Below, piece by piece: positions 1,779 to 47,231 of a DNA stretch of 64,000 nt. Origin of the DNA: Escherichia coli (lineage in GTDB: Bacteria > Pseudomonadota > Gammaproteobacteria > Enterobacterales > Enterobacteriaceae); assembly GCF_003334335.1 (NCBI RefSeq), contig NZ_QOWQ01000009.1, one strand, 5' to 3'. The notes beneath the pieces are model-generated. The model saw only the letters and a list, made by a program, of their open reading frames with translations, did not search any database and had not been told where the DNA came from. The position numbers were made by a program, and so were the translations under genes. The stretch's first letter is position 1, and each line of letters opens with the position of its first letter.

Positions 1779-1872
1779 TCGTACAGACTCCTGGTCGCCC
1801 CTGATGGGCAAAACATCTATGATACACGCAATTGTGGATCAATATAGTCACTGTGAATGGGTGGAAAATAGC

Positions 1873-2418
1873 ATGAGTGCCAATGAAAACAACCTGATTT
1901 GGATCGATCTTGAGATGACCGGTCTGGATCCCGAGCGCGATCGCATTATTGAGATTGCCACGCTGGTGACCGATGCCAACCTGAATATTCTGGCAGAAGG
2001 GCCGACCATTGCAGTACACCAGTCTGATGAACAGCTGGCGCTGATGGATGACTGGAACGTGCGCACCCATACCGCCAGCGGGCTGGTAGAGCGCGTGAAA
2101 GCGAGCACGATGGGCGATCGGGAAGCTGAACTGGCAACGCTCGAATTTTTAAAACAGTGGGTGCCTGCGGGAAAATCGCCGATTTGCGGTAACAGCATCG
2201 GTCAGGACCGTCGTTTCCTGTTTAAATACATGCCGGAGCTGGAAGCCTACTTCCACTACCGTTATCTCGATGTCAGCACCCTGAAAGAGCTGGCGCGCCG
2301 CTGGAAGCCGGAAATTCTGGATGGTTTTACCAAGCAGGGGACGCATCAGGCGATGGATGATATCCGTGAATCGGTGGCGGAGCTGGCTTACTACCGCGAG
2401 CATTTTATCAAGCTGTAA
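1873..2418 (+). CDS. orn: oligoribonuclease
   Basis: ORF 1729..2418; sequence [34 protein letters not shown] is Orn; start set to ATG at 1873 (181 aa). Confidence 0.93.
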
Positions 2419-2543
2419 AATTTTTCCTGGTCACGTAAGCGCCGGAATCCACTTGCGGCGGCGTGATTTTGACGCTAAATTGAACGTCTTGCTGATAATT
2501 TCAGCACTTGAGATAAAAACGCAAAAAAAACTTTTTTGGGGGG

Positions 2544-2571
2544 TTGCAGAGGGAAAGATTTCTCGTATAAT
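2544..2571 (+). promoter_or_regulatory. sigma70-type promoter for the tRNA-Gly operon: -35 TTGCAG, 16-nt spacer, -10 TATAAT, GC-rich discriminator GCGCCTCCC
   Basis: Read directly: TTGCAG at 2544-2549, TATAAT at 2566-2571, A/T-rich UP-like tract upstream, tRNA starts at 2629. Confidence 0.6.
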
Positions 2572-2628
2572 GCGCCTCCCGTAACGACGCAGAAATGCGA
2601 AAATTACGAAAGCAAAATTAAGTAGTAC

Positions 2629-2704
<76 letters not shown>

Positions 2705-2740
2705 AAATTTGAAAAGTGCTGCAAAGCACAGACCACCCAA

Positions 2741-2816
<76 letters not shown>

Positions 2817-2834
2817 AATTCTTCTCTCAATAAA

Positions 2835-3084
2835 ATATCCACAGCGACGCGATGCGTTATTGCTGGTTTTTGTTGTCTCTGACAAACTCTTGTAAACAGA
2901 GTTATCCACAGCCTCAGGCTGTAATCTTAATTTCAAAGAAACTTCGCACGGTGAATAGTATTTTTTTAACCTATTGATAGATAAGTTAAAAATTAAGATT
3001 CCGTTTTGTCGAGTCGATCACTTGACGATTTTATTCGTCTTGAATTGCAATGCGTTTTTATTTTTATTCACAAGCTGTGGATGA
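2835..3084. promoter_or_regulatory. datA: DnaA-box cluster with IHF-like site, consistent with the datA DnaA-titration locus
   Basis: TTATCCACA at 2902-2910 and TTATTCACA at 3064-3072 match TTATNCACA exactly; ATATCCACA at 2835-2843 and minus-strand TCATCCACA at 3076-3084 are 8/9; TATCAATAGGTTA (WATCAANNNNTTR) on minus strand about 2967-2979; location downstream of tRNA-Gly and into queG 3' end fits my recollection of datA. Confidence 0.6.
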
Positions 3085-3085
3085 A

Positions 3086-4223
3086 TCAGGCGTCACGCGG
3101 TAACCCTTTTTCAATCACCCGAACCAGACGCTGTTTTTTCGGCAATTGCACTTCGACTATGCACGCATTTCGTCTCTCTATTTGCTGCGCAATCGCCCAC
3201 GCTATGTGCTCATCGAGAAGTGGGTGCTCACCTTTACGACTTTCCAGCGCTGTCAAAATCGTTTCATCCCAAGGGGCATTGCCTAATGCTACGGCGATAT
3301 TACGCAGCCAACGCAGGTGACCAATACGACGAATCGCCGATCCTTCCGTGACTTTTAAAAACTTCTCTTCGCTCCAGGCGAATAACTCAATGAGTTCCGG
3401 TGCGTGTAGCGGCTTACGCGGGCTGAAATCCTCTTCTGTGGTGAGTTGTGAATAGCGATTCCACGGGCAGATAAGCTGGCAGTCATCGCAACCGTAAATA
3501 CGGTTTCCCATTAACGGTCGCAACTCTTCCGGGATCGCCCCTTCAAGTTCGATGGTGAGATAAGAGATACAGCGGCGAGCATCGACGGTATATGGCTCGA
3601 CGATGGCACCGGTCGGGCAAATCGTCATACAGGCCACGCATTTGCCGCATCCTTCCTCGACTGGTTGATCCACGGGCAGCGGAATATCGACCAGCAATTC
3701 GCCTAAAAAGAAGAACGAACCGGCCTCGCGATTGAGGATAAGTGAGTGCTTACCTGTCCAGCCGAGCCCAGCTTTTTCAGCTAACGGGCGCTCGAGAATA
3801 GGCGCAGAATCGACAAACGGTCTAAAATTCAGCGAAACACAATGTTGCTGAATCATCTCGCCCAGCTTTTTGAGTCGGTTGCGCAGAAGTTTGTGATAGT
3901 CACGGCCCAGCGCATAACGGCTAACATAGCCGAGTTTGGGGTTTTTCAGCGTGCTGGCAAATGCGGCGTTAGCAGGAAGGTAATTCATCCGCACGCTGAT
4001 CACGCGCAGCGTACCGGGCAATAACTCATGAGGGCGAGCGCGCAGCATACCGTGACGTGCCATCCAGTCCATTTCGCCGTGGTATTGTTTGTCCAGCCAT
4101 GCTTGCAGTTTGGGCTCGGACTCGCTGAGATCGGTATCGGTAATACCTACCTGCTGAAAGCCCAGTTCCAGCCCCCACTGTTTAATTTTTTGCGCTAACT
4201 GATTGAGATCGAGGGGCTCTGAC

Positions 4224-10360: not shown

Positions 10361-10433
10361 ATGTGTACAATTGAGACGTATCGTGCGCAATTTTTTCAGA
10401 ATCGAAAGGTTCAAAGTACAAATAAGCATATAA

Positions 10434-10829: not shown

Positions 10830-12110
10830 TTGTTTGACCGTTATGATGCTGGTGAGCAGGCGGTACTGGTACACATCTATTTTACGCAAGACAAAGATAT
10901 GGAAGACCTCCAGGAGTTTGAATCTCTGGTCTCTTCCGCCGGTGTCGAAGCATTGCAGGTGATTACCGGTAGCCGTAAAGCGCCGCACCCAAAGTATTTT
11001 GTAGGTGAAGGTAAAGCAGTTGAAATTGCGGAAGCTGTCAAAGCGACGGGTGCTTCGGTCGTTCTTTTTGACCATGCCCTGAGCCCGGCGCAAGAGCGTA
11101 ACCTGGAGCGTTTGTGCGAGTGTCGTGTTATCGACCGCACCGGCCTTATTTTAGATATTTTCGCCCAACGTGCGCGTACCCATGAGGGTAAGTTGCAGGT
11201 TGAGCTGGCGCAGCTGCGCCATCTGGCTACGCGCCTGGTGCGTGGCTGGACCCACCTTGAAAGACAGAAAGGCGGGATAGGTTTGCGTGGTCCGGGTGAA
11301 ACCCAGCTCGAAACCGACCGTCGTTTGTTGCGTAATCGCATCGTGCAGATACAGTCGCGCCTGGAAAGAGTTGAAAAGCAGCGTGAGCAGGGGCGGCAAT
11401 CGCGTATCAAAGCCGACGTTCCTACTGTTTCGCTGGTGGGATATACCAACGCCGGTAAATCTACCCTTTTCAATCGCATCACCGAAGCGCGGGTCTACGC
11501 GGCAGACCAGTTGTTTGCCACCCTCGACCCGACGTTGCGGCGTATTGACGTTGCAGATGTCGGTGAAACCGTACTTGCAGATACCGTAGGGTTTATTCGC
11601 CACCTGCCGCACGATCTGGTGGCGGCATTTAAAGCCACGTTACAAGAGACGCGGCAAGCCACATTACTGCTGCACGTCATTGATGCGGCGGATGTGCGTG
11701 TACAAGAAAACATCGAAGCGGTGAATACGGTTCTTGAAGAGATCGACGCTCACGAGATCCCAACCCTGCTGGTGATGAACAAGATCGATATGCTGGAAGA
11801 TTTCGAACCGCGTATTGATCGGGACGAAGAGAACAAACCGATCCGTGTCTGGCTTTCCGCACAGACCGGAGCGGGGATACCACAGCTTTTTCAGGCTTTG
11901 ACGGAGCGGCTTTCCGGCGAGGTGGCGCAGCATACATTGCGTCTGCCACCGCAGGAAGGGCGTCTGAGAAGTCGTTTTTATCAGCTTCAGGCAATAGAAA
12001 AAGAGTGGATGGAGGAGGACGGCAGCGTAAGTCTGCAAGTTCGTATGCCGATCGTTGACTGGCGTCGCCTCTGTAAACAAGAACCGGCGTTGATCGATTA
12101 CCTGATCTAA
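10830..12110 (+). CDS. hflX: ribosome-associated GTPase HflX
   Basis: 426 aa; (M)[30 protein letters not shown]-domain GYTNAGKST; start codon at 10830 is TTG. Confidence 0.93.
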
Positions 12111-12195: not shown

Positions 12196-13455
12196 ATGGC
12201 GTGGAATCAGCCCGGTAATAACGGACAAGACCGCGACCCGTGGGGAAGCAGCAAACCTGGCGGCAACTCTGAGGGAAATGGAAACAAAGGCGGTCGCGAT
12301 CAAGGGCCACCTGATTTAGATGATATCTTCCGCAAACTGAGCAAAAAGCTCGGTGGTCTGGGCGGCGGTAAAGGCACCGGATCTGGCGGTGGCAGTTCAT
12401 CGCAAGGCCCGCGCCCGCAGCTTGGCGGTCGTGTCGTTACCATCGCAGCGGCAGCGATTGTCATTATCTGGGCGGCCAGTGGTTTCTATACCATTAAAGA
12501 AGCCGAACGCGGCGTGGTAACACGCTTTGGTAAATTCAGCCATCTTGTTGAGCCGGGTCTGAACTGGAAACCGACGTTTATCGACGAAGTCAAACCGGTG
12601 AACGTGGAAGCCGTGCGTGAACTGGCCGCTTCTGGTGTGATGCTGACGTCGGACGAGAACGTAGTGCGCGTTGAGATGAACGTGCAGTACCGCGTCACCA
12701 ATCCGGAAAAATATCTGTATAGCGTGACCAGCCCGGATGACAGCCTGCGTCAGGCTACCGACAGCGCCCTGCGTGGAGTTATCGGTAAATACACCATGGA
12801 CCGCATTCTGACGGAAGGTCGTACCGTGATTCGTAGCGATACTCAGCGCGAACTGGAAGAGACGATTCGTCCGTATGACATGGGTATCACGCTGCTGGAC
12901 GTCAACTTCCAGGCTGCTCGTCCGCCGGAAGAAGTAAAAGCGGCGTTTGACGATGCGATTGCCGCGCGTGAAAACGAACAGCAATACATTCGTGAAGCAG
13001 AAGCGTATACCAACGAAGTTCAGCCGCGTGCGAACGGTCAGGCGCAACGTATCCTCGAAGAGGCGCGTGCGTACAAGGCCCAGACCATCCTGGAAGCTCA
13101 GGGTGAAGTGGCGCGCTTTGCTAAACTTCTGCCGGAATATAAAGCCGCGCCGGAAATTACTCGCGAGCGTCTGTATATCGAGACGATGGAAAAAGTGTTG
13201 GGTAACACCCGCAAAGTGCTGGTTAACGATAAAGGTGGCAACCTGATGGTTCTGCCGTTAGACCAGATGCTGAAAGGTGGTAACGCCCCTGCGGCGAAGA
13301 GCGATAACGGTGCCAGCAATCTGCTGCGTCTGCCGCCAGCCTCTTCCTCCACAACCAGTGGAGCAAGCAACACGTCGTCCACCAGTCAGGGCGATATTAT
13401 GGACCAACGCCGCGCCAACGCGCAGCGTAACGACTACCAGCGTCAGGGGGAATAA
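12196..13455 (+). CDS. hflK: FtsH protease modulator HflK
   Basis: 419 aa; MAWNQPGNNGQDRDPWGSS, Gly-rich N-terminus, SPFH/band-7 domain. Confidence 0.95.
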   Translation: MAWNQPGNNGQDRDPWGSSKPGGNSEGNGNKGGRDQGPPDLDDIFRKLSKKLGGLGGGKGTGSGGGSSSQGPRPQLGGRVVTIAAAAIVIIWAASGFYTIKEAERGVVTRFGKFSHLVEPGLNWKPTFIDEVKPVNVEAVRELAASGVMLTSDENVVRVEMNVQYRVTNPEKYLYSVTSPDDSLRQATDSALRGVIGKYTMDRILTEGRTVIRSDTQRELEETIRPYDMGITLLDVNFQAARPPEEVKAAFDDAIAARENEQQYIREAEAYTNEVQPRANGQAQRILEEARAYKAQTILEAQGEVARFAKLLPEYKAAPEITRERLYIETMEKVLGNTRKVLVNDKGGNLMVLPLDQMLKGGNAPAAKSDNGASNLLRLPPASSSTTSGASNTSSTSQGDIMDQRRANAQRNDYQRQGE

Positions 13456-13457
13456 CG

Positions 13458-14462
13458 ATGCGTAAGTCAGTTATCGCGATTATCATCATCGTGCTGGTAG
13501 TGCTTTACATGTCTGTCTTTGTCGTCAAAGAAGGTGAGCGCGGTATTACGCTGCGTTTTGGTAAGGTACTGCGTGACGATGACAACAAACCTCTGGTTTA
13601 TGAGCCGGGTCTGCATTTCAAGATACCGTTCATTGAAACGGTGAAAATGCTCGACGCACGTATTCAGACCATGGACAACCAGGCCGACCGCTTTGTGACC
13701 AAAGAGAAGAAAGACCTGATCGTCGACTCTTACATCAAATGGCGCATCAGCGATTTCAGCCGTTACTACCTGGCAACGGGTGGTGGCGACATTTCGCAAG
13801 CGGAAGTGCTGTTGAAACGTAAGTTCTCTGACCGTCTGCGTTCTGAAATTGGTCGCCTGGACGTGAAAGATATCGTCACCGATTCCCGTGGTCGTCTGAC
13901 CCTCGAAGTACGTGACGCGCTGAACTCCGGTTCTGCGGGTACAGAAGATGAAGTTACTACCCCGGCGGCAGATAACGCCATTGCCGAAGCGGCAGAGCGC
14001 GTAACGGCTGAGACGAAGGGCAAAGTTCCGGTCATCAACCCGAACAGTATGGCGGCGCTGGGTATTGAAGTTGTCGATGTGCGTATCAAGCAGATCAACC
14101 TGCCGACCGAAGTGTCTGAAGCGATCTACAACCGTATGCGCGCCGAGCGTGAAGCGGTAGCGCGTCGTCACCGTTCACAAGGTCAGGAAGAAGCGGAAAA
14201 ACTGCGCGCGACTGCCGACTATGAAGTGACCAGAACGCTGGCAGAAGCTGAGCGTCAGGGCCGCATCATGCGTGGTGAAGGCGATGCCGAAGCAGCCAAA
14301 CTGTTTGCTGATGCATTCAGTAAAGATCCGGACTTCTACGCATTCATCCGTAGCCTGCGTGCTTATGAGAACAGCTTCTCTGGCAATCAGGACGTGATGG
14401 TCATGAGCCCGGATAGCGATTTCTTCCGCTACATGAAGACGCCGACTTCCGCAACGCGTTAA
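13458..14462 (+). CDS. hflC: FtsH protease modulator HflC
   Basis: 334 aa; MRKSVIAIIIIVLVVLYMSVFVVKEGERGI, SPFH domain; starts 3 nt after hflK stop. Confidence 0.95.
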   Translation: MRKSVIAIIIIVLVVLYMSVFVVKEGERGITLRFGKVLRDDDNKPLVYEPGLHFKIPFIETVKMLDARIQTMDNQADRFVTKEKKDLIVDSYIKWRISDFSRYYLATGGGDISQAEVLLKRKFSDRLRSEIGRLDVKDIVTDSRGRLTLEVRDALNSGSAGTEDEVTTPAADNAIAEAAERVTAETKGKVPVINPNSMAALGIEVVDVRIKQINLPTEVSEAIYNRMRAEREAVARRHRSQGQEEAEKLRATADYEVTRTLAEAERQGRIMRGEGDAEAAKLFADAFSKDPDFYAFIRSLRAYENSFSGNQDVMVMSPDSDFFRYMKTPTSATR

Positions 14463-35176: not shown

Positions 35177-35256
35177 AACGCGTCATTTTTCAGCCGACCT
35201 TTAACACGTTCCTTGCCTCCCCGGGATTCGGCTGACCCAGACAGGAGGCTGAATAA

Positions 35257-35670
<414 letters not shown>

Positions 35671-35676
35671 TTTCTG

Positions 35677-36223
<547 letters not shown>

Positions 36224-36252
36224 TCGGTCACGGTCCATTAATACGACTTTGA

Positions 36253-36714
<462 letters not shown>

Positions 36715-36738
36715 TTCGTTATTCAACGAGACGTAAAA

Positions 36739-36768
36739 ACGCCGACCATTGGTCGGCGTTTTGCTTTT
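36739..36768. terminator. bidirectional rho-independent terminator (rplI on plus strand; accessory operon on minus strand)
   Basis: Hairpin ACGCCGACC-ATTG-GGTCGGCGT flanked by AAAAA upstream and TTTTGCTTTT downstream. Confidence 0.8.
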
Positions 36769-36825
36769 GTAGCGAGCACTTGCAGATATCGATAAGGGCC
36801 ACAATAAGCAGCCCTACGAAGATAA

Positions 36826-37797
36826 TTACTTAGCTGCCTGAATATCAGCCAGCATTGGGGCAAGGGCTGGGTTGTCCTTAGCGAAGTTTGCGTACATTGG
36901 CTGTACTTTCTCGATAAACGGAGCTTTATCTACCTGGTAGACTTTCACGCCCATTTTATCCAGTTTTGCAAATTCTTGTTTCTCTTCCTCGCTCCACAAG
37001 TCTTTCATGTAGCTCATTGATTCTTTAGCTGCTTTTAATATAACTGCCTGATTTTCCTGGCTAAGTTTATCAAACGCAGCATTGCTCATCAGAACCACAT
37101 CGGGAACCATAGTGTGTTCGTCAAGGCTGAAGGATTTTGCCACTTCACCGTGACGCATGGTAGTCAGCGCCATCACGCTGTTTTCTGCCATATCGACCAC
37201 ACCCTGCTGTAAGGCTGTATACAACTCGCCGTAATCCAGTGGCGTCGGGTTACCGCCCATGACTTTGATCATTTCAACTGCGCCAGGGCTTGGCTGGACA
37301 CGGACTTTCATGCCTTTCAGATCGTCTGGTTTCAGTACTGGTTTATTGCCATAGAAACTGCGGGCGCCTCCATCATAAAAAGTCAGCCCGAAATAACCTT
37401 TGCTTTTCGTTGAGTCGAGGATTTTTCTCCCGATATCGCCCTGCATGACCTGATAATAATGATCACGATCGCGGAACAAATAAGGCAGGCTAAATAATTT
37501 ATAGGAATTTTCAAATGCTTCCATTTCTGCCGCATTGGTTTTTACCAGGGGAATAGCGCCAGAACGAATCAGCTCCATTGTTTCTCGTTGAGTACCCAAT
37601 GTTCCATTTGGATAAATACGAATAGTAATATCACCGTTAGAGTACTCTTTGCTCTTTTTCGCAAAGAACTCCATCGCTTTATGAACAGGATGAGACTTAT
37701 CCTGATTATGACTCAGTTTTAATGTCACTGCCCAGGACTGGCTTGCGGATAACATAAGAACAGCACCGATAATGCCAGCGGATACTTTTATTTTCAT
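36826..37797 (-). CDS. TRAP transporter periplasmic solute-binding protein (DctP family)
   Basis: 323 aa, signal peptide MKIKVSAGIIGAVLMLSASQSWA; DctP-like fold with Arg in YDGGARSFYG at the position typical for carboxylate binding; last gene of operon; AT-rich. Confidence 0.8.
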   Translation of the reverse strand: MKIKVSAGIIGAVLMLSASQSWAVTLKLSHNQDKSHPVHKAMEFFAKKSKEYSNGDITIRIYPNGTLGTQRETMELIRSGAIPLVKTNAAEMEAFENSYKLFSLPYLFRDRDHYYQVMQGDIGRKILDSTKSKGYFGLTFYDGGARSFYGNKPVLKPDDLKGMKVRVQPSPGAVEMIKVMGGNPTPLDYGELYTALQQGVVDMAENSVMALTTMRHGEVAKSFSLDEHTMVPDVVLMSNAAFDKLSQENQAVILKAAKESMSYMKDLWSEEEKQEFAKLDKMGVKVYQVDKAPFIEKVQPMYANFAKDNPALAPMLADIQAAK

Positions 37798-37849
37798 AGA
37801 TGTTCCTTTTCTAATAAATATGGCGGCAGGTGCCGCCAGTGAATGCGCA

Positions 37850-39151
37850 TCAGTAGCCCAGTGCTCTTGGCAATGCCATACTGATTTGCGGAATATAGGT
37901 CACCATTGCCAGCACCAATACCATCACGGCATAGAATGGCAGCATAGGTTTGATAATTTTATTAATCGGTAATTTAGATACACTACAACCGACAAATAAC
38001 ACACTGCCTACAGGCGGAGTACAAATACCGATACACATGTTCAGTACCATGACAATACCAAAGTGAATCGGGTCCATGCCCAGTTCGGTGACAACCGGTA
38101 AAAATATCGGCGTAAAAATCAGTACCGCCGGTGTCATATCCATAAAAGTGCCGATAATCAACAGGATAATATTGATAATAAGCAGGATTATTATTGGGTT
38201 GTCAGAAATAGTGTTAAGCAAATCGAGAATCAGGAAGGGAACGTCAGCGTTTGACATTGCCCATGACATACCCATCGAAGAACCAATTAATAACAAGACA
38301 ATTGCAGTGGTAATAACGGATTCCAGAAATATTTTAGGTAAATCTTTAACTGAGATTTCACGATAAAGAACCAGTGCAAGGAAAAGGGTATAAATTACTG
38401 CAATTGCGGAGGCCTCTGTCGGGGTAAAAATACCACTTAATACACCCCCCATAATTAAAATAATCAGGAAAATACTGGGGATAGCCATCCATATCGCAAC
38501 GCCAGCCTGGCGTAAAGTCGGGCGTTCTGGCTTTGGATAACCGCGACGTACCGCGATAATACCGGCTATTACCATCAGTGCCAGACCCAGCAAAATTCCC
38601 GGAACATAACCCGCCAGGAACAGTGCGGCAATAGAAGTACCACCACTGACCAGTGAATAGACGATTAACGTATTACTTGGTGGAATAAGCAAACCCGTCG
38701 GGGCAGAGGCAACGTTAACCGCAGTACTGAATGCCGGGTCGTAACCCTCTTTAACCTGTTGCGGATGCATGACGCCGCCCATCGCAGCCGCCGAAGCCAC
38801 GGCTGAACCAGAAATTGCCCCGAACAGCATATTGGCGAGAATATTACAGTGGGCAAGTGAGCCTGGCAGACGACCGCCGAGAATACGGGCAAAGTTGATT
38901 AATCGTCGCGCTATTCCTCCATGGTTCATAATGTTGCCAGACAAGATAAAAAATGGGATTGCCAACAACGTAAAACTATCTAACCCGGAGGCTAACTTTT
39001 GGGAAACCACACTCAATGCTGAGTTGAAATCGAGTTGTGTGGAAATTGATGCCAGTGTCGATAAACCAATGGCATAAACAATAGGTACACCTAATGCCAA
39101 CATAAAAAAGAAGGCACCAAATAACACAATAATCGGTAACCAGTAATCCAT
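37850..39151 (-). CDS. TRAP transporter large permease (DctM family)
   Basis: 433 aa polytopic membrane protein, typical DctM N-terminus MDYWLPIIVLFGAFFFMLALGVPIVYAIGLSTLA; GGAG SD before ATG; sampled lines about 30% G+C. Confidence 0.85.
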   Translation of the reverse strand: MDYWLPIIVLFGAFFFMLALGVPIVYAIGLSTLASISTQLDFNSALSVVSQKLASGLDSFTLLAIPFFILSGNIMNHGGIARRLINFARILGGRLPGSLAHCNILANMLFGAISGSAVASAAAMGGVMHPQQVKEGYDPAFSTAVNVASAPTGLLIPPSNTLIVYSLVSGGTSIAALFLAGYVPGILLGLALMVIAGIIAVRRGYPKPERPTLRQAGVAIWMAIPSIFLIILIMGGVLSGIFTPTEASAIAVIYTLFLALVLYREISVKDLPKIFLESVITTAIVLLLIGSSMGMSWAMSNADVPFLILDLLNTISDNPIIILLIINIILLIIGTFMDMTPAVLIFTPIFLPVVTELGMDPIHFGIVMVLNMCIGICTPPVGSVLFVGCSVSKLPINKIIKPMLPFYAVMVLVLAMVTYIPQISMALPRALGY

Positions 39152-39193
39152 AATTTCTCCATTCCTACTATGGTTGGTTGTTGTTTGTTATCT

Positions 39194-39694
39194 TTAGAGT
39201 GGTTGTTTAAGTTCGGTTAAAACCATATCTATGGTGTATATAATAATAAGTACACCACTAATCGGGATGCTCATATAGATATATCCCATTTGCCAGCCTA
39301 AAGCGGGCGAGGTCTGACCTGAATCGAATGTATCCATCGTTAATAGCCCACCACCATATACCATAATGATGGTTGCGAAGATAATAACGATAATCTGAAT
39401 ACACAAAAATAAATGACGTCGGGCTTTTCCTTTCAGCATCATAGGTAGCAGGTCAATCGCCAGATGCCGGTTTTGCCCTGCGGTGTATGCCCCACCAAAA
39501 AGTCCAAGACAAATAAAGAGCAAACGGCTGAGTTCATCTGTAAAAATACTGGGACTAGTAAATATAAATCGTGCAGCCACCTGCCACGTCACACATGCCA
39601 CGATGATCGCCAAAATGGTAATGTTCAATGCTGCAAGCAGAGCATTAATAGATCTAATTATATTTCGCATAGTGATTAACCTTTGCAATATCAT
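39194..39694 (-). CDS. TRAP transporter small permease (DctQ family)
   Basis: 166 aa, four hydrophobic segments, size and position typical of DctQ; start ATG overlaps stop of upstream flavoprotein gene (ATGA). Confidence 0.7.
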   Translation of the reverse strand: MILQRLITMRNIIRSINALLAALNITILAIIVACVTWQVAARFIFTSPSIFTDELSRLLFICLGLFGGAYTAGQNRHLAIDLLPMMLKGKARRHLFLCIQIIVIIFATIIMVYGGGLLTMDTFDSGQTSPALGWQMGYIYMSIPISGVLIIIYTIDMVLTELKQPL

Positions 39695-41772
39695 TCATCC
39701 TGTGGCTGGTAAATTGTCCCATTAAGAAAACCAGGCCAGTTTTTTTCAAACCAAATACCTCGGATAATAGGAAACTCACGAACAGGTGTTTCTCTGACGT
39801 GAAAGATACCGTTGCAATAATGAATAAGTAGTTTATCTTTTTTATCCTCAGTACGCTCTGAACGAAAGCGCCAGGCATCACAAAAACCATTTCGTGTTTG
39901 CGGAATAGAATTTCCATCCCTGTCGAGAATAATACGTGCTCCCCGACTACCACCACCTGCGTCAATATAATGCGTTAATTGCGTTAATACGGCGGCAGAA
40001 GTCAGTGCCATATGCCGCCACATAAACAGCTCGGCAACTTCACCCACATGTTTGATAGCCAATCCATGCCGTTGGACAAATTCGCTCAATAGCAGGGCAT
40101 CGCGAGTGGCGCGTCGGACTTTATCGGCATGGCAAATAAATCCCGCATGGTCAGACATTCGTGCCTGAATTTTTTCTCTCACAACCGACAACGGCATCCC
40201 GGTCCCGTTATCGTGCGCCTGAGTAATGATCTCTCTTATAGAAGCCAGTGTAGGAGCTACCAGCTGTGCTATATCTCCATCAATATTCCGCTTTTGCGTG
40301 CAACCAATAAAACGTGCCAGACGAACAGCAAAAACCTGCCCGGCATTCAATGCTGCACCACCAGGGCGAGTGACGCCGTGTGTGCCAGCAACTTCCCCCA
40401 CGGCGAAACAGCCGGGCAGGGAGGTTTGTCCCCAGATATCCACTTCAATGCCGCCATTCATATGCTGATTATTCATGGCAAACTGCAAAGGCTGTGTGGT
40501 GAGATCGTAACCGTGCATCTTATACAGCGAGATAGACAGCGGATTCATTCGTTGCAGCCGTTCGATGGGCGATGGTGCCAGAGCGTCGTTATTTTCCAGA
40601 TACGCGCGAACGTCGTCGTCCAGTCGATCTAATGAGAACGGCAGGTCACCCGGCACCGCTTCAGGATTGCGATTGAAATCCATAAATACCTGACGCCCTG
40701 ATTGCTGCTCTTGCGCTACTGCCATATCTAACAAGCTGGAGCCAAAATCCATCACCCGAGTGGCGTGGAACGGCCACTGATAGCCTTTACGGAAAATGTT
40801 TGAAGCCAGCTCCTGGGTGGTGCGATAGTAATCCGCGAGGAAGTTATACTCGTTACCCTCAGCATCCACGGAATAGATATACGGGATCACCTGTACATAG
40901 GTGCCGGATAAATTCCACGGAAACGTGCTACGCGGCGTGCCTATACCAAACTGGCTTTCGGTCAGATTGGTTAGCGTCAGGCCTTCCTCCAGCGCCAGCC
41001 CCAGCGAGCCAAAACATTTGTGTGGGTACACACTGTCGCGATAAAGCTCGCCAGGCCCTCCTGTTGCCAGTACCACATTGGGCGCAGTCACAATTGCCAG
41101 CCCCCAAGGGTTATGGGCGCGATGACCGGTCGCGAGGATTGCCCCCGCAACACGGTCTTCGCCGTTTTCGTCACGCTGATGCAGCAGTTTAATCACTGTT
41201 GCACTGGTCAACACTGGAATGGCGAGGCGCTGTACTTCTTCCAACAGCACTTTCACCATTAACCTTGAGGTACGCGGCCCACACGAGGTTGCACGCCCGG
41301 CTTCGTCATGGTCGGTTTGATAACGAAGAATCGCGCCATAGCGATCTTCCGGTAATTCCAGACCAAGATATTGCAACCCGCCAAGAGTGTGCAGAGAACC
41401 TACCGCTTCGACATAAGCGGTGTCGTGATCCATCGCCCCACCGCTCGCCAGTGCCTCTGCCAGTTTGGTGAAGTTGTCGCCGTTGCCCGCGGTAGCGGCG
41501 GTAAACAGTGTCTGTTTATCGGAACCAGAACATGCCGACGTCCCCATATATAACCCGGCGGTGGCGATCAGCACATTTTGCTGGCGGCGTTTAAGTTCCA
41601 CAGCTGCACGCAGCCCGGCTGCACCACTGCCGACTACCAGGGCATCTGTTTGCCAGAGTGGGTAATCAACACCGTCTACCGTGACAACCCATGCGGGCTC
41701 TGCCTGTGCAAAACCCTTTGGGAAAGTAACGTGCGTCAGCGCATCAAGGATGGTGTCATCAAGCTGACTCAT
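39691..41772 (-). CDS. FAD-dependent oxidoreductase, fumarate reductase/succinate dehydrogenase flavoprotein-like (693 aa)
   Basis: N-terminal dinucleotide-binding motif ALVVGSGAAGLRAAVEL; C-terminal FAD motif GCFAVGEVAGTHGVTRPGGAALNAGQVFAVRLARFI; no RSHT-type covalent-FAD His motif seen; ATGA overlaps on both sides. Confidence 0.75.
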   Translation of the reverse strand: MSQLDDTILDALTHVTFPKGFAQAEPAWVVTVDGVDYPLWQTDALVVGSGAAGLRAAVELKRRQQNVLIATAGLYMGTSACSGSDKQTLFTAATAGNGDNFTKLAEALASGGAMDHDTAYVEAVGSLHTLGGLQYLGLELPEDRYGAILRYQTDHDEAGRATSCGPRTSRLMVKVLLEEVQRLAIPVLTSATVIKLLHQRDENGEDRVAGAILATGHRAHNPWGLAIVTAPNVVLATGGPGELYRDSVYPHKCFGSLGLALEEGLTLTNLTESQFGIGTPRSTFPWNLSGTYVQVIPYIYSVDAEGNEYNFLADYYRTTQELASNIFRKGYQWPFHATRVMDFGSSLLDMAVAQEQQSGRQVFMDFNRNPEAVPGDLPFSLDRLDDDVRAYLENNDALAPSPIERLQRMNPLSISLYKMHGYDLTTQPLQFAMNNQHMNGGIEVDIWGQTSLPGCFAVGEVAGTHGVTRPGGAALNAGQVFAVRLARFIGCTQKRNIDGDIAQLVAPTLASIREIITQAHDNGTGMPLSVVREKIQARMSDHAGFICHADKVRRATRDALLLSEFVQRHGLAIKHVGEVAELFMWRHMALTSAAVLTQLTHYIDAGGGSRGARIILDRDGNSIPQTRNGFCDAWRFRSERTEDKKDKLLIHYCNGIFHVRETPVREFPIIRGIWFEKNWPGFLNGTIYQPQDE

Positions 41773-43310
41773 GCATCCTCCATCGGCGTAAACAGGCTAC
41801 TTTCCATCAGGCGTGGGTGCTTGATAATTGGACGGAAAGCCATATACGGCAGAATGTCGCGCTCAATCTCCACACCCGGCGCGATTTCAATTAATTCAAC
41901 GCCTTCTGCCGTTAACTGGAATACTGCGCGTTCAGTGATATACAACACTTCCTGACCACTTTGCTGTGCGTAGGCGGCGCTAAAAGTGATTTTTTCCACC
42001 TTGGTAACCAGTTTAGGGATTTGACCTGACTGGGCGATATGCAAGCCATCTGGTGTTATATCGATCTTGCTGCCTTTAGCGTCGAACGTGCCGCAGAACA
42101 CCACTTTACGGGCATTTTGCGCAATTTCGAGAAATCCGCCGGGGCCAATCAGATTGCCATTGAGATGGGAGACGTTGACGTTACCGTACTGATCCATCTC
42201 TCCCATGCCGAGGAAGGTGATATCGATCCCTCCGCCACTGTAGAACTCAAATTGATCGAGTGATGGAATAATGGCATCGGCGTTGCGGGCGCAGCCGAAA
42301 AACGCATCATCCAGCATCATGCCGTTATGTACGCCTTGCTCGACGCTCAGCCATAAACTTTGGTAAGGAACGCCTTCGCGCAGCGCTACTCCTGGAATGC
42401 CGCCGGGAATACCAAAGCCAAAGTTGGTTGAAGCGCCAGCTACCAGTTCGCGTGCTGCCCGACGGGCAATCAGGCGACGTACCGGATGACTAACCAGTTC
42501 AATAGCGTCGTTAGAACTCAGACGGCGATGTTGGCCGCTGATGGTCAGGTCGTAACCGCCAAGATAGGTTTGTGGTTGTTCGCGGTGTTCAACGATGCCA
42601 TCAACCAGAATGCCCGGTAATTTGACCCGGCGTGGTTCAATCGCGCCAGCTTCCAGCACATCGCGTACCTGTACGAACACTTTGCCGCCGCTGTTGTGTG
42701 CTGCCAGCGCCATGGAATAGCTATCCATATCAATCGCTTCTTCTTCAAGGCTGACGTTGCCTCGAGGATCGGCATAAGTGCCACGCAAAATCGCGTAATC
42801 CACTTTGAAAGGGCGATAACGAAGTTTGGTTTCACCGTCGATTTCAATCAGTTCTACCAGCTCGTCGGTAGTGCATTCATTCGACTTACCGCCGCCATTG
42901 CGTGGATCAACAAACGATCCCAGCCCAACGTGGGTAAAAAGCCCCGGACGTCCGGCGCCGATCTCCCGTAGCAGTGCCTGAATCACGCCACCAGGAAAGC
43001 AGTAGGCTTCAATCGTGTTATTTTTTACCAGCGCCTGCATTTTGGGCGACCAGGTAAAGTGCCCGGCAATAATGCGTTTGAGCATCTCTGCGTGCGCAAA
43101 ACGATTAGTGCCTTTGCAGTCGCGATCGCCAATACCCAGCGAGTGGATTAGCGTCAGGTCGCGAGGGTGTCCGGTTTGCAGGAAACGCGCTTCAATAGCA
43201 GCCAGAATATGGTCGGCTTCCACCATACCGCCGCCGTTACCGCTAATAGCAATAGTCGCACCGTCCTGAATTTGCGCCGCCAGTGCCTCGGCGGTTGTTA
43301 TCTTACGCAT
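41769..43310 (-). CDS. family-I CoA-transferase, fused alpha/beta subunits (YdiF / propionate-CoA-transferase-like)
   Basis: 513 aa; GNGGG-containing N-terminus (ATIAISGNGGGMVEADHILAAI) and overall layout of fused 3-oxoacid/acetate CoA-transferases; family call from memory of fold. Confidence 0.7.
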   Translation of the reverse strand: MRKITTAEALAAQIQDGATIAISGNGGGMVEADHILAAIEARFLQTGHPRDLTLIHSLGIGDRDCKGTNRFAHAEMLKRIIAGHFTWSPKMQALVKNNTIEAYCFPGGVIQALLREIGAGRPGLFTHVGLGSFVDPRNGGGKSNECTTDELVELIEIDGETKLRYRPFKVDYAILRGTYADPRGNVSLEEEAIDMDSYSMALAAHNSGGKVFVQVRDVLEAGAIEPRRVKLPGILVDGIVEHREQPQTYLGGYDLTISGQHRRLSSNDAIELVSHPVRRLIARRAARELVAGASTNFGFGIPGGIPGVALREGVPYQSLWLSVEQGVHNGMMLDDAFFGCARNADAIIPSLDQFEFYSGGGIDITFLGMGEMDQYGNVNVSHLNGNLIGPGGFLEIAQNARKVVFCGTFDAKGSKIDITPDGLHIAQSGQIPKLVTKVEKITFSAAYAQQSGQEVLYITERAVFQLTAEGVELIEIAPGVEIERDILPYMAFRPIIKHPRLMESSLFTPMEDA

Positions 43311-43319
43311 ACAATTTCC

Positions 43320-44102
43320 TTATTGATTATGGAAGCTCACGCTACTTTTTTCGGCAAAGGCGCGCGTCGCCTGCTGGCAATCCTGAGTGGCAGACATTAA
43401 TCCGGCCAGTAGCTGGTGCGGGTAATCGGCATGTTTATTTTCCAGTGCCAGAATCAGTTGCTTAATATGCGCCAGTGCCACCGGGCCGCATTTTTCCAGC
43501 TGCGCTAACTGGTTCGCCATCCAGCTTTCCACCTGTTCTTTTTCTACCACTTCATCAATTAAATTCGCCGCCTGGGCTTCCTGCGCCGTCAGGCGTTTAC
43601 CCAGCATCAGCATCTGGCGACCGACCACCGGACCAACCTGATTAAGCACACGTTCAATGCCCATCCAGCCAGGCACCATGCCGAGCATCACTTCCGGGTT
43701 AGAGAATTTCGCGCCGGGGCGGGCAATACGAATATCGCAGCACAAGGCCAGTTCAATACCACCGCCGATGGTATGACCGTTGAGATTCGCAACGGTTAAT
43801 TGGGGTAAGTTTCGCAGGCGATTAAAAACGTCATTACCGCGTTTAATCCATTTTCTGCCCATATCTAATGGCGAATAGGCCGACCACGATTTAATATCGC
43901 CGCCCGCACAAAAGAATTTATCGCCGGTTGCCGTTAATTCGACTAATCGTAATGTGGTGTCGTTTTCAATTTCATTTAAATAATGGTCGAGAGATTCGAT
44001 CATCTCTTCGTTAATAGCATGACATTTATCTTCACGGTTCAATGTCAGGCGGCAGGAAGCCGCCGCTCTGCTGAACAGAACGGGTTGGTCACTCATGATC
44101 AT
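43320..44102 (-). CDS. enoyl-CoA hydratase/isomerase (crotonase fold)
   Basis: 260 aa; oxyanion-hole motif FCAGGDIK, catalytic Glu motifs GGGIELALCCDIRIA and FSNPEVMLGMVPGWMG. Confidence 0.8.
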   Translation of the reverse strand: MIMSDQPVLFSRAAASCRLTLNREDKCHAINEEMIESLDHYLNEIENDTTLRLVELTATGDKFFCAGGDIKSWSAYSPLDMGRKWIKRGNDVFNRLRNLPQLTVANLNGHTIGGGIELALCCDIRIARPGAKFSNPEVMLGMVPGWMGIERVLNQVGPVVGRQMLMLGKRLTAQEAQAANLIDEVVEKEQVESWMANQLAQLEKCGPVALAHIKQLILALENKHADYPHQLLAGLMSATQDCQQATRAFAEKSSVSFHNQ

Positions 44103-44105
44103 TCC

Positions 44106-44948
44106 TTAACAATAATGCGCGATGCGATCGACGCTAATATCCAGCGTGCTGTTAATATCTTTTTGCCACCAGTACGGCGAGAATATTTCCAGTTCAATAG
44201 CGCCATTAAATCCGGCGTTTTCAACCAGCCGACGAATTGACGGAATATTGATGACGCCATCTCCCGGCATACCACGGTCATTGACCAGATCAGTGGTCGG
44301 CACTAACCAGTCGGAAACATGAAACGCGAGGATGCGTTTTCCGGCACGCAGGATCTGACTGGCGAGATCCGGATCCCACCAGACGTGATAAACATCCACC
44401 GCCACGCCGAGGCCAAACTCACCATCGGGATCGAGTTCATCACACCAGTCCAGCGCCTGGCGTAACGTGCACAGGCAAGAGCGATCGGCAGCTGTCATCG
44501 GGTGCAGTGGCTCCAGCGCAATTGGCACGCCGACATCTTTCGAATGTGGCAGCAACTGGCGAATCCCTTGTTTCACTTGTTCTCGCGCTTCATATAGATC
44601 TTTAGTGCCCGTTGGCAGACCGCCAACCACCTGCATATAACAGGCGGCGTTAAGCACCGCTGCGTCGTCCAGCGCCCGGCGGTTATCATCAATCGCCAGT
44701 TTGCGTTCCGCCAGTGTCGGCGCGGTGTAGTAAGTGCTACGGCACAAACCGGAAACGCTCATGTTACTGGCGGCAAGCTGGTGGGCGATTTGCTGGAGAT
44801 CTTCACCTTGCAACTCCCTGCGCCAGGGAGCAATCGCGCCAATACCACGCGCGGCGCAGGCATCAATAATGGCGGGTAGCGGCGTTTTATAGCCCAGTGT
44901 TGCGGTATTGATACTGAATAAATCCGGGCGTTGTAACAGATCTCTCAT
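44106..44948 (-). CDS. sugar-phosphate isomerase/epimerase, xylose-isomerase-like TIM barrel
   Basis: 280 aa; conserved metal-ligand pattern of the family (IALEPLHP, DVYHVWWD, AIELEIF); the same fold as UlaE in this window but clearly a different sequence. Confidence 0.7.
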   Translation of the reverse strand: MRDLLQRPDLFSINTATLGYKTPLPAIIDACAARGIGAIAPWRRELQGEDLQQIAHQLAASNMSVSGLCRSTYYTAPTLAERKLAIDDNRRALDDAAVLNAACYMQVVGGLPTGTKDLYEAREQVKQGIRQLLPHSKDVGVPIALEPLHPMTAADRSCLCTLRQALDWCDELDPDGEFGLGVAVDVYHVWWDPDLASQILRAGKRILAFHVSDWLVPTTDLVNDRGMPGDGVINIPSIRRLVENAGFNGAIELEIFSPYWWQKDINSTLDISVDRIAHYC

Positions 44949-44957
44949 GATTCAGCC

Positions 44958-45749
44958 TCAGAAGCGCGGCATACTTAAGCCGCCGTCGATGGCGACCGCC
45001 TGACCACAGGTGTAAATCAGTTTACCTTCCGCCATCGCGCGGACAGTGGAAGCAATATCAGCCGGATAACCCCAACGTCCCCACGGCACCAGACCTTTGG
45101 CAATCAGTTCGTCGTAATAAGCCGTTGCCGGAATAGTCATATCAGTTTTGATGAGACCTGGGCGCACTTCATAAACGCCAATTTGTTCATTACAAAGGCG
45201 AGCTGCAAATAGACGAGCAGCGGCAGAAACGGCGGTTTTGGCAATGGTGTATTCGCCGCGATTCATCGCCAGCATGATGGCGTTGATGGAACTGACGAAA
45301 ATAATCGAGCGGTGCGGCAGTTCCGCTTCCGGTTTCGGCTGTGCCAGTAAACGCTTACTGAATGCCTGAGCAAGGAAGAACGGCGCGCGGGTGTTAATGG
45401 CAATGTTTTGATCGAAGCTGTCTGGTTCGAGGTCGAGGAGGTCACCGCGTTTTTTCACTGAAATGCCTGCGTTGTTGAGCAGGCAGTCCAGACGTCCCCA
45501 CAGGTTTTGCGCCGCGTCGAGCATCTCTTCATGCAAGGAGAGATCGCCGACATCGGCAGGGAAGCAAATCACTTCCACGCCTTCAGCTATACATTCTTGT
45601 TGTGTGATATGCAGTTTTTCTACGCTGTCGGCATCGGGAAGATCGTTAATCAGCAGGTTAAATCCGCCACGAGCAAGCTCCAGCGCACAGCCCTTTCCAA
45701 TACCACGAGCGGCTCCGGTAATCACGGCAACAGGACGAGTGGATTTCAT
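44958..45749 (-). CDS. short-chain dehydrogenase/reductase (SDR), first gene of accessory operon
   Basis: TGAARGIGKG cofactor motif, NNAG, catalytic YTIAK; ORF track begins at a TTG (45791); first ATG at 45749 gives the usual spacing before the Gly motif. Confidence 0.85.
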   Translation of the reverse strand: MKSTRPVAVITGAARGIGKGCALELARGGFNLLINDLPDADSVEKLHITQQECIAEGVEVICFPADVGDLSLHEEMLDAAQNLWGRLDCLLNNAGISVKKRGDLLDLEPDSFDQNIAINTRAPFFLAQAFSKRLLAQPKPEAELPHRSIIFVSSINAIMLAMNRGEYTIAKTAVSAAARLFAARLCNEQIGVYEVRPGLIKTDMTIPATAYYDELIAKGLVPWGRWGYPADIASTVRAMAEGKLIYTCGQAVAIDGGLSMPRF

Positions 45750-45795
45750 ACAATAGCTCTCTTTTTTTGAATATTGTTTTCTAAGTGACAATTAG

Positions 45796-45839
45796 CTTGC
45801 GACGTGCCGCAAGAAAGATCAACCATCTGGTTGGTTGAT
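45796..45839. promoter_or_regulatory. two adjacent palindromes in the divergent control region between the accessory operon and its TetR gene (candidate operators)
   Basis: CTTGCG-ACGTGC-CGCAAG (45796-45813) and ATCAACCA-TCTGGT-TGGTTGAT (45818-45839, with nested AACCA-TC-TGGTT); read directly. Confidence 0.5.
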
Positions 45840-45961
45840 ATGCGATAGTGATCACAGGACATTTGATAACTTGATGAAAGTACAAGTTTTTATCCTTTTT
45901 ACTGGAGCTTCTAATTAATCGGGTTAAGATAGTTATCTTGAAGAGGTCGTGGGGAAGCGTT

Positions 45962-46609
45962 ATGTATCTTGATACCAGCAACGTACAGAGCCTGAAGGAA
46001 AAGCTGCTGTTATGCGCGGTTAATGAATTTGCCGAATATGGTTATGAAGGGGCCAGGGTCGATAATATTGTTAAGGCTGCGGGGTGTAGTAAACAGACGG
46101 TTTATCATCACTTTGGTAATAAAGAAAATTTATTTATTGAAGTACTGGAATATACCTGGAACGATATTCGACAAAAAGAAAAGGCCCTTGATTTCTCAGA
46201 TCTTCCGCCACAAAAAGCCATTGAGAAAATTATTGATTTTACATGGGATTATTATATTGCTAATCCCTGGTTTTTAAAAATTGTGCATAGTGAAAATCAA
46301 AGTAAAGGTGTGCATTATGCAAAATCACAGCGTCTCTTAGAAATTAACCATGCGCACTTGCAGTTAATGGAATCCTTATTGGATGAAGGGAAGAAACACA
46401 ATATTTTTAAGCCAGATATCGACCCATTGCAGGTGAATATTAATATTGCTGCGCTTGGCGGATATTATTTGATCAACCAGCATACGCTTGGCCTGGTTTA
46501 TCATATCAGTATGGTTTCCCCCCAGGCACTGGAAGCCAGACGTAAGGTCATCAAAGAGACAATCCTTAGCTGGCTTTTGGTTGACCCTTCATCTACCGCG
46601 CACGAATAA
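45962..46609 (+). CDS. TetR-family transcriptional regulator
   Basis: N-terminal [47 protein letters not shown]; ORF track start 45938 is TTG, first ATG at 45962; 3' end overlaps ytfB 3' end by 17 nt. Confidence 0.8.
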
Positions 46610-47231
46610 AACTGCCATCCGGCTGGCGGGTGAACAGGACCTGTTGATTATTCCCCGTATCAATGGTTAAGCCCGTCACCACGCCGCTGGCGTTCTGGCG
46701 GATTTTCACCATTTGCCCGTTTTGCAAATTACTCAGCGGCTTACCCGCGCCTTCTACCTGCGCCATTGCATAGACATCGGTAGCGGGCAGTCCGTGGTCG
46801 CGGAACAGCTGCGCCATCGTTTTACCGGGTTCGACACGGTAAGAGCGCCATTGATTATCAATTCCGCTATCTGGCTGGAATGGTTGTGTTTGGGTAGTTT
46901 GCGGCTGTTCTTCTGGCTGGCCTTCCTGTATAGGTTCTGGAGCGACCGGAGCCACCTGATCAGGATCATTTTGTGGTGTGACTAATTGCGCCCGCAGCTG
47001 TTCTTCTGTCGGCGGTTGTGATTGCGACTGAATATCTAACTGCGCTTCACGCGTCACCACCGGCGCGTTGGGCGTATCATCAGATGGAAGCAGAAATCCG
47101 ACCACCAATATAATGGCGGCAATAATGATCCCCCGACGATGCATCGGCGGCAGCGGGTCCATGAAGCGAAAATTGTCCGGCGCGTGCCAGACTTTCTCCA
47201 GGGTTGGTTTTAGTTCAAAGCGCCCGGGCAT
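46593..47231 (-). CDS. ytfB: cell-division protein YtfB (OapA/LysM-like)
   Basis: ORF 46593..47267; start set to ATG 47231 (212 aa, [46 protein letters not shown]). Confidence 0.88.

Follow-up and report, generated by a model that had tools for sequence, protein, structure and literature searches.

An AT-rich TRAP transporter cassette at the exchangeable 3' end of a CoA-dependent operon in Escherichia coli

Between rplI and ytfB, in a 64,000-nucleotide (nt) stretch of Escherichia coli DNA (assembly GCF_003334335.1, contig NZ_QOWQ01000009.1; hereafter the window), lies an operon of enzyme genes followed by dctQ, dctM and dctP, which encode a tripartite ATP-independent periplasmic (TRAP) transporter. 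A sequence-only reading of the window had pointed out that the transporter genes are AT-rich compared with the enzyme genes, and had proposed that the two modules were joined from different donors or that the region is a recent mosaic. The analysis presented here favors another history, to which a probability of roughly 0.6 is given: the TRAP cassette probably sits in an old, exchangeable 3' uptake slot of an Enterobacteriaceae operon, and its AT-richness is probably not the signature of a recent donor. The transporter end does appear to have a history of its own, as indicated by exchange between TRAP genes and genes of the major facilitator superfamily (MFS), by breakpoints within the neighboring flavoprotein gene (here called FADox) and by distance ratios; a recent event and a different donor, of lower G+C content, are not supported.

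The operon begins with a short-chain dehydrogenase (SDR) gene and continues through genes for a TIM-barrel isomerase, an enoyl-CoA hydratase (ECH), a CoA-transferase and FADox to dctQ, dctM and dctP; a gene encoding a TetR-family regulator is divergent from it. In window order, with overall G+C (GC) and third-position G+C (GC3), the genes are:

36826-37797, (-) strand: dctP, TRAP substrate-binding protein, 323 amino acids (aa), GC 0.447, GC3 0.457
37850-39151, (-) strand: dctM, TRAP large permease, 433 aa, GC 0.446, GC3 0.442
39194-39670, (-) strand: dctQ, TRAP small permease (RefSeq annotation), 158 aa, GC 0.414, GC3 0.395
39691-41772, (-) strand: FADox, 693-aa flavoprotein of the fumarate-reductase / L-aspartate-oxidase superfamily (Pfam FAD_binding_2), GC 0.524
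41769-43310, (-) strand: family-I CoA-transferase, paralogue of E. coli YdiF, GC 0.532
43320-44096, (-) strand: enoyl-CoA hydratase/isomerase family protein (ECH), GC 0.505
44106-44948, (-) strand: xylose-isomerase-like TIM-barrel protein (AP_endonuc_2), GC 0.550
44958-45749, (-) strand: SDR, the operon's first gene, GC 0.534 (NCBIfam PRK12745, 417 bits)
45962-46609, (+) strand: TetR-family regulator, intact here and reduced to the pseudogene ytfA in K-12, GC 0.397, GC3 0.397

The transporter genes have what membership of the TRAP family calls for. The dctP product scores 246.5 bits against NCBIfam TIGR00787 (cut-off 175) and 251 bits against NF037995 (cut-off 50), that of dctM scores 458 bits against TIGR00786 (cut-off 268), and orthologues of dctQ at 91% and 76% identity carry Pfam PF04290. 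All three open reading frames are intact, and dctQ starts 20 nt past the FADox stop codon. FADox itself gave no equivalog match in family searches.

The compositional step between transporter and enzymes is real, and smaller than first described. The TRAP block (36826-39694) has a GC of 0.437, compared with 0.527 for the enzyme block, 0.517 for the window and a mean of 0.526 (standard deviation 0.036) for 54 core genes of the window, which also served as the codon usage reference. Among 2.9-kb stretches of the 64-kb window the block is the GC minimum, with fewer than 1% of such stretches equally low. The sequence-only reading thus had the direction right and the size overstated: its 30-37% G+C for dctM and dctP (computed values 0.446 and 0.447) came from hand counts that sampled the low tail of 60-nt lines, of which 28% in the block are at or below 37% G+C and the median is at 45%. 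At synonymous sites the difference is significant, both in GC3 (0.439 for the TRAP genes and 0.530 for the enzymes, Fisher p = 6e-6) and in synonymous codon usage, whether the TRAP genes are compared with the enzymes (G = 79, 41 degrees of freedom, p = 4e-4) or with the core genes (G = 164, p = 1e-16). The codons ATA, AGA, CGA, TTA and GCA are commoner in the TRAP genes, and no gene of the window falls further short of its expected synonymous GC than dctM (z = -7.7, in binomial standard deviations below expectation).

It could be argued that there is no real break, and that the lower G+C reflects the hydrophobic amino-acid composition of membrane proteins or noise in hand counting. Some observations do go in this direction. 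Amino-acid composition combined with native codon usage predicts a GC of 0.501 for the TRAP genes and 0.547 for the enzymes, a gap of 4.5 points; about half of the observed gap of 0.088 is thus accounted for, and the remaining half is synonymous. In related Rhodocyclaceae loci, described below, the TRAP genes lie 3-8 GC points under the enzymes despite uniform GC3, and the first estimates did come from the low tail. However, the GC3 difference and the 7.7 standard deviations of dctM are not explained in this way, and dctP, which is periplasmic and not membrane-embedded, is also low. The native transporter genes ulaA, cycA, ytfF and paeA have a GC3 of 0.653, compared with 0.430 for dctQ and dctM together, so membrane-protein character is not the cause of the synonymous deficit. 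For the synonymous component this explanation is refuted; as a full account it is very improbable, and it remains a partial contributor only.

The step does not fall on a gene boundary. In a likelihood change-point analysis of GC3 along the operon it was placed at ~40363 (support 40285-40480), inside FADox, with a likelihood ratio of 44 compared with a maximum of 20 in 500 permutations. At the operon's opposite end, the TetR gene matches the TRAP genes in AT-richness. Atypical base composition and codon usage, of the kind expected of a horizontally acquired genomic island, are confined to the TRAP block and TetR, and the enzyme genes are host-like. Elsewhere in the window, the core block yjfI-yjfM (20290-23182) is likewise GC-poor (yjfI 0.389, yjfL 0.440, synonymous z down to -4.4), and AT-rich genes in the window are thus not limited to accessory DNA.

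What distinguishes the 3' end of the operon is that its content varies within the species. A survey of 5,426 complete E. coli genomes recovered the enzyme module, at 94-100% nucleotide identity, from 3,115 of them; about 2,300 are without the operon. The dctQMP genes were found in 1,446 genomes; an unrelated MFS gene occupies the slot of the TRAP genes in 1,686, and a third form, consisting of a second MFS type (MFS-B) and a MaoC dehydratase, is present in two. The K-12 locus has neither the TRAP nor the MFS form, and carries instead yjfZ (GC 0.42) and a truncated TetR gene. There, the pseudogene ytfA corresponds to the 3' 400 nt of the window TetR gene (window 46207-46609; K-12 locus L093, 3088-3596), and a 102-nt remnant of the SDR gene, 81% identical, is retained (window 45559-45660). 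These remnants indicate that K-12 lost the operon and that yjfZ is now at the site.

In four TRAP-type E. coli strains the TRAP genes and the enzymes are both ~98-100% identical. A recent sweep of the TRAP cassette, which would have left it far less diverse than the enzymes, was considered and rejected, since these strains show no TRAP diversity deficit. Signs of operon decay are frequent (UTI89 among the genome matches; L094 at 11369-11843; L096 at 17133-17925; L006 at 12903-14038; proteins P0002, P0034 and P0086), and include IS1 insertions in TRAP or MFS genes and frameshifts in dctQ and SDR. A dctP frameshift is also probable in a divergent Escherichia (L006), where the gene is uncalled although the DNA is 92% identical, and some called products are fusions of FADox and CoA-transferase.

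The borders of the exchanged region can be placed closely. On the left, homology with MFS-type and K-12-type loci stops at 36767-36775, just past the rplI terminator, and this is the left edge in every variant of the locus. On the right, the border lies within FADox, in which two segments can be distinguished:

39691-39950, (-) strand: hypervariable, AT-rich 3' end of FADox, comprising the last ~85 codons (residues ~609-693), GC3 0.25-0.28
39951-40400, (-) strand: mosaic segment of FADox, with its end close to the GC3 change point at ~40363

Compared with MFS-type alleles, the first segment has 55-60% nucleotide identity and the rest of the gene 95-99%. The position of the drop differs between MFS-type strains. 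Relative to strain GN06098 it lies at ~39950, with 95-99% identity above, including the 39951-40400 segment, and 55-60% below. Relative to strain ST12468 it lies at ~40400, where 92-100% identity drops to the 65-81% of the same segment, in agreement with the compositional change point. Strain ST12468 has no differences from the window at 376 four-fold sites in cycA and fklB, and its FADox is ~100% identical to that of the window over 40794-41800; yet its slot holds the MFS gene. Recombination is thus still exchanging cassettes in E. coli. The locus shows both marks of allelic replacement by homologous recombination: identity drops sharply at definable breakpoints, and genomes of one species have unrelated genes (dctQMP, MFS, MFS with MaoC, or yjfZ) between the rplI terminator and the FADox or TetR sequences.

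The protein product of the exchanged FADox tail is itself unusual. In the enteric loci compared, the C-terminal ~85 residues are fast-evolving, with 40-56% identity where the protein body has 78-96%, and contain a conserved motif, FEKNWPxFLxGxIY. TRAP-type tails mostly read G-x-W-FEKNWP...IYQP, with Y for W in the divergent Escherichia TRAP allele (L006); in MFS-type tails the common motif is x-Y-FEKNWP. Tail type mostly sorts with the downstream transporter type. It is conceivable, if quite improbable, that the tail goes beyond hitch-hiking and serves as a docking module specific to the transporter, linking uptake with the first flavin-dependent step; if true, such docking would account for the intragenic recombination breakpoint. 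A milder version would see the TRAP and MFS alleles as a trans-species balanced polymorphism kept by niche-dependent substrate concentration.

The right-hand edge of the locus shows separate variation. In two TRAP-type E. coli strains (L094 and L095), the TetR and ytfB alleles are 81% and 76% identical to those of the window and the enzymes 95-100%. The segments matching window 45962-47231 represent a second recombinant segment; ytfB is annotated as a LysM-like protein in both strains.

How old is this arrangement? The sequence-only reading had allowed for a recent mosaic, and a recent import of dctQMP and the FADox tail from a lower-GC donor, with AT-richness as un-ameliorated donor composition, is the standard explanation for such a step. 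It would fit the window's GC minimum, the atypical codon usage and the patchy distribution of the TRAP genes in E. coli. Its difficulty lies in where else the cassette occurs. The interval between rplI and ytfB also harbors the operon in Salmonella, Klebsiella oxytoca, Citrobacter tructae, Klebsiella sp. and divergent Escherichia, and the absence from related species that would mark a genomic island is thus not observed. At least four types of cassette are present among enterics: TRAP, three classes of MFS (down to 50% mutual identity), and MFS with MaoC but without the hydratase. The TRAP form in particular is at this locus in Escherichia lineages ~92-94% identical to the window, in Klebsiella sp. 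and in two further enterics. In the Escherichia lineages, TRAP divergence is similar to that of the enzymes and the flanking core genes, and within Enterobacteriaceae the ratios of TRAP to enzyme protein distance are ~0.75 for DctQ and DctM together and 0.9-1.6 for DctP, roughly proportional. Such co-divergence of cassette and enzymes at one locus, in divergent Escherichia as well as Klebsiella, does not support a recent insertion.

Nor were signs of mobility found. Neither an integrase nor a tRNA or repeat marks the edges of the locus, which are formed by the rplI terminator on one side and the overlap of TetR and ytfB on the other, and no mobility genes are annotated there. The window is E. 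coli chromosome, 100% identical over 36000-47000 to several complete genomes and collinear with strain 190 over its full length, save for a few small indels. Carriage on plasmids was considered as well, and was rejected: the plasmid matches at 99% identity or above are records of 0.37-4.8 Mb, which are mislabelled chromosomal sequence.

Composition across hosts also bears on the idea of an import. MFS cassettes, TRAP genes, the FADox tail and TetR are all GC-poorer than the enzymes in each of the enteric genera compared, so that the compositional step alone is no donor signature. The GC3 of the operon periphery climbs with host GC; for the TRAP genes it is ~0.44 in E. coli, 0.43-0.55 in Klebsiella sp., 0.60-0.71 in an enteric of 59% G+C and ~0.8 in Rhodocyclaceae. 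Synonymous changes were polarised among three Escherichia lineages by three-taxon parsimony, without a rooted outgroup, with the following counts:

TRAP genes: 109 AT->GC and 108 GC->AT, equilibrium GC3 0.42, current GC3 0.42
TetR: 25 AT->GC and 25 GC->AT, equilibrium GC3 0.39, current GC3 0.39
Enzymes: 148 AT->GC and 239 GC->AT (p = 4e-6), equilibrium GC3 0.44, current GC3 0.56
Core flanks (cycA, fklB, ytfB, ulaF): 47 AT->GC and 79 GC->AT, equilibrium GC3 0.48, current GC3 0.61

The balanced changes in the TRAP genes and TetR indicate that both are stationary, near the composition that the local substitution pattern implies for all genes of the locus. The excess of AT->GC changes toward host composition that amelioration would produce is not present in the TRAP genes. 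It is the enzyme region (39951-45749) and the core flanks, with their excess of GC->AT changes, in which GC3 is above the equilibrium implied by recent substitutions. Low GC3 in the TRAP genes thus fits a persistent property of a polymorphic periphery better than it fits an un-ameliorated import.

A donor of lower G+C was sought in species-representative genomes, a protein database and a plasmid search, and none was found. Among species-representative genomes, a search with DctM returned one Escherichia locus and 79 systems in the gene order P-Q-M at 63-70% identity. These are mostly from low-GC Vibrionaceae, Pasteurellaceae and Morganellaceae, a point that could be taken in favor of an import, but none fits as the donor, given the identity, the different gene order and the lack of adjacent enzyme genes. 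The nearest non-enteric relatives (DctM 80-86%, DctP 74-77%) are all in DNA of 53-65% G+C. They include an 80%-identical DctM on a 3-kb metagenomic contig of 53% G+C, in P-Q-M order, and Rhodocyclaceae proteins from the protein database (Uliginosibacterium sp. and one metagenome-assembled genome), with DctM at 85-86% and DctP at 74-75% identity. Taken with the cassette's age and the balanced substitutions, these results make a recent import from a lower-GC donor unlikely.

The Rhodocyclaceae loci are also informative about deeper history. Their gene order is TetR, then MaoC-SDR-TIM barrel-ECH-CoA-transferase-FADox-dctQ-dctM, with dctP on the opposite strand; they lie in DNA of 64-65% G+C, and GC3 is uniform at ~0.8. 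Their enzymes are 39-62% identical to those of E. coli. Relative to Rhodocyclaceae, the ratios of TRAP to enzyme distance fall to 0.40 and 0.53, two- to three-fold off the values within enterics, which is evidence for different deep histories of the transporter and the enzymes.

It may be instead that the TRAP-linked operon is the original form and the MFS genes are intruders, in which case the step would reflect a gene-specific equilibrium of weakly expressed, weakly constrained peripheral genes. Rhodocyclaceae share the order of TetR and FADox-dctQ-dctM, the TRAP and enzyme genes of enterics have diverged together, and TRAP and TetR are both at compositional equilibrium, with TetR, common to all forms, equally AT-rich. 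The frequent inactivation by IS1 insertions and frameshifts would suggest relaxed constraint. On the other hand, MFS forms have the wider spread among genera (Salmonella, K. oxytoca/grimontii, Citrobacter, E. albertii, E. marmotae), the TRAP/enzyme distance ratios vary across the deep split, so that at least one exchange separated the two histories, and the breakpoints inside FADox show that replacement happens. That the TRAP form came first and the MFS genes later is thus a possible but doubtful account.

Several points weigh against the old exchangeable slot preferred here. The polarisation of substitutions was unrooted, as stated above, and on the window's own branch there are 31 AT->GC and 19 GC->AT changes, a non-significant excess (p = 0.12) in the direction that a recent import would predict. 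Between E. coli and Klebsiella sp., four-fold-site divergence is 1.3-2.2 for the TRAP genes, compared with 0.7-0.9 for the enzymes, which could mean independent acquisitions instead of weaker synonymous constraint. Distance ratios relative to Rhodocyclaceae could mislead if the enzyme genes of that family are paralogues (ECH is 39% identical). No particular lineage emerges as donor or recipient, and the replacement may have been of TRAP into an MFS operon or the reverse. Finally, the force that presumably holds GC3 low in the periphery is so far a proposal. A recent transfer of the TRAP genes between E. coli and Klebsiella was considered separately and rejected, as four-fold-site divergence is saturated at 1.3-2.2.

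With the old exchangeable slot as the preferred reading, the following model can be proposed. The rplI-ytfB interval would contain an old CoA-dependent catabolic operon of Enterobacteriaceae, of uncharacterised function, with a 3' slot that holds TRAP genes (dctQMP) here and an MFS carrier in other E. coli; in K-12, the whole operon would have been replaced. Cassettes would be swapped by homologous recombination, with one crossover in the conserved sequence directly after the rplI terminator and a second in the 3' third of FADox, so that the hypervariable last ~85 codons would be carried along with the transporter. The compositional step would then be the border at which a conserved enzyme core meets a periphery that evolves on its own, and the synonymous half of the gap would be a long-standing stationary state near GC3 0.42. 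Enzyme and core genes would be kept above equilibrium, presumably by selection or GC-biased conversion, acting more weakly on the periphery (TetR, the FADox tail and the transporters). Both cassettes are probably alternative uptake routes for one carboxylate, TRAP as a high-affinity, binding-protein-dependent system and MFS as a simple carrier. Of these elements, composition, cassette polymorphism, breakpoints, distribution and substitution counts were observed directly; what keeps GC3 low, which substrate is taken up and which cassette came first are inferred.

Compositional detection of horizontally acquired DNA, together with the amelioration model, reportedly goes back to Lawrence and Ochman in 1997. 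The present locus resembles that case in its local drop in G+C, its atypical codons and its patchy block. It differs in that the block is old, a lower-GC donor was not found, and drift toward host composition is absent (109 versus 108).

A choice between TRAP and MFS transporters is known from sialic acid uptake, for which E. coli uses NanT (MFS) and Haemophilus uses SiaPQM (TRAP). The same TRAP-or-MFS choice for carboxylate uptake is seen with the Salmonella hexuronate systems ExuT (MFS) and STM3169-3171 (TRAP). Unlike in these examples, the two types here are allelic at one slot within one species (1,446 and 1,686 genomes), and the crossover is inside an upstream enzyme gene. A rationale for carboxylate uptake in terms of high-affinity TRAP and lower-affinity MFS transporters has been described (PMC7660916).

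Among characterised TRAP systems, YiaMNO of E. coli K-12, which transports 2,3-diketo-L-gulonate, is likewise built of three components, and its YiaN model recognises DctM. The scores are well short of equivalog assignment (290.6 bits for YiaN, cut-off 800; 36.5 bits for YiaM, cut-off 260), and the locus and the binding-protein relatives are different. DctPQM systems of the C4-dicarboxylate type from Vibrionaceae and Pasteurellaceae are the commonest close relatives outside Enterobacteriaceae among species-representative genomes (DctM 64-70%, DctP 53-59%), but their order is P-Q-M and not Q-M-P, no enzyme module is nearby, and Rhodocyclaceae are closer. The closest solved relatives of DctP include the TRAP proteins 4n15, 4n91 and 4mhf (E = 1e-60 to 1e-66), whose ligands are hexuronates (D-glucuronate/D-galacturonate; PMC7660916). 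Judged by sequence similarity alone, DctP may thus resemble the hexuronate binders.

For the enzymes, the gene set suggests CoA-activation of an imported carboxylate, possibly followed by flavin-dependent, hydratase and dehydrogenase steps. The CoA-transferase is a full-length relative (E = 1e-113) of the acyl-CoA:acetate CoA-transferase YdiF (PDB 2ahu); it is a paralogue in a different operon. Searching the literature by gene name and by gene content turned up no account of the locus, its pathway or its function, and the sole relevant mention was of ytfA as a variably present TetR gene.

Two intergenic features of the locus can be added:

45818-45839, SDR-TetR intergenic region: palindrome ATCAACCA-N6-TGGTTGAT
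36736-36762, 3' of rplI: perfect hairpin with A-run and T-run

The palindrome, a candidate TetR operator, recurs with 0-1 mismatches wherever the locus occurs in Escherichia, Salmonella, Klebsiella and Citrobacter; the Rhodocyclaceae loci gave no match to it. The hairpin acts as a terminator in both directions, since the transcripts of rplI and dctP converge on it; apart from it, promoter and terminator scans found nothing enriched. An Rfam search gave the RpsF leader as its single match (RF02893, 110 bits, 35193-35277), upstream of rpsF, as expected.

The MaoC version of the operon has peculiarities of its own. In both the E. coli copy (L007, 5660-14867, Logan SRR11848740) and the Salmonella copy (L011, 5742-13004), the ECH gene is missing and the MFS gene is followed by a MaoC-type dehydratase, apparently a non-orthologous replacement for the enoyl-CoA hydratase. 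The E. coli copy also has a HipA/HTH toxin-antitoxin pair adjoining rplI. The MFS proteins of the two copies are 95.5% identical, which suggests intergeneric transfer, and this version is more AT-rich over its whole length (CoA-transferase GC 0.46-0.47). Away from the locus, the window differs from strain 190 by ~111 nt extra between orn and queG (window ~1800-3100), a position that in strain 190 is an array of three tRNA-Gly genes, and by 1-nt indels near 10400 and 20200.

The locus is a well-defined new instance of genome mosaicism that is already known and ordinary. It serves as a worked example in which a step inside an operon marks separately evolving modules, yet the standard inference of a recent import from lower-GC DNA fails: the AT-rich part is old and stationary, and it is in the GC-richer enzyme and core genes that composition departs from equilibrium. 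The allelic polymorphism of TRAP and MFS forms (~1,450 and ~1,700 E. coli genomes) amounts to a natural experiment in high-affinity versus carrier-type uptake. The operon is present in more than half of complete E. coli genomes, and in Salmonella and Klebsiella as well, and the binding protein offers a direct handle on its substrate.

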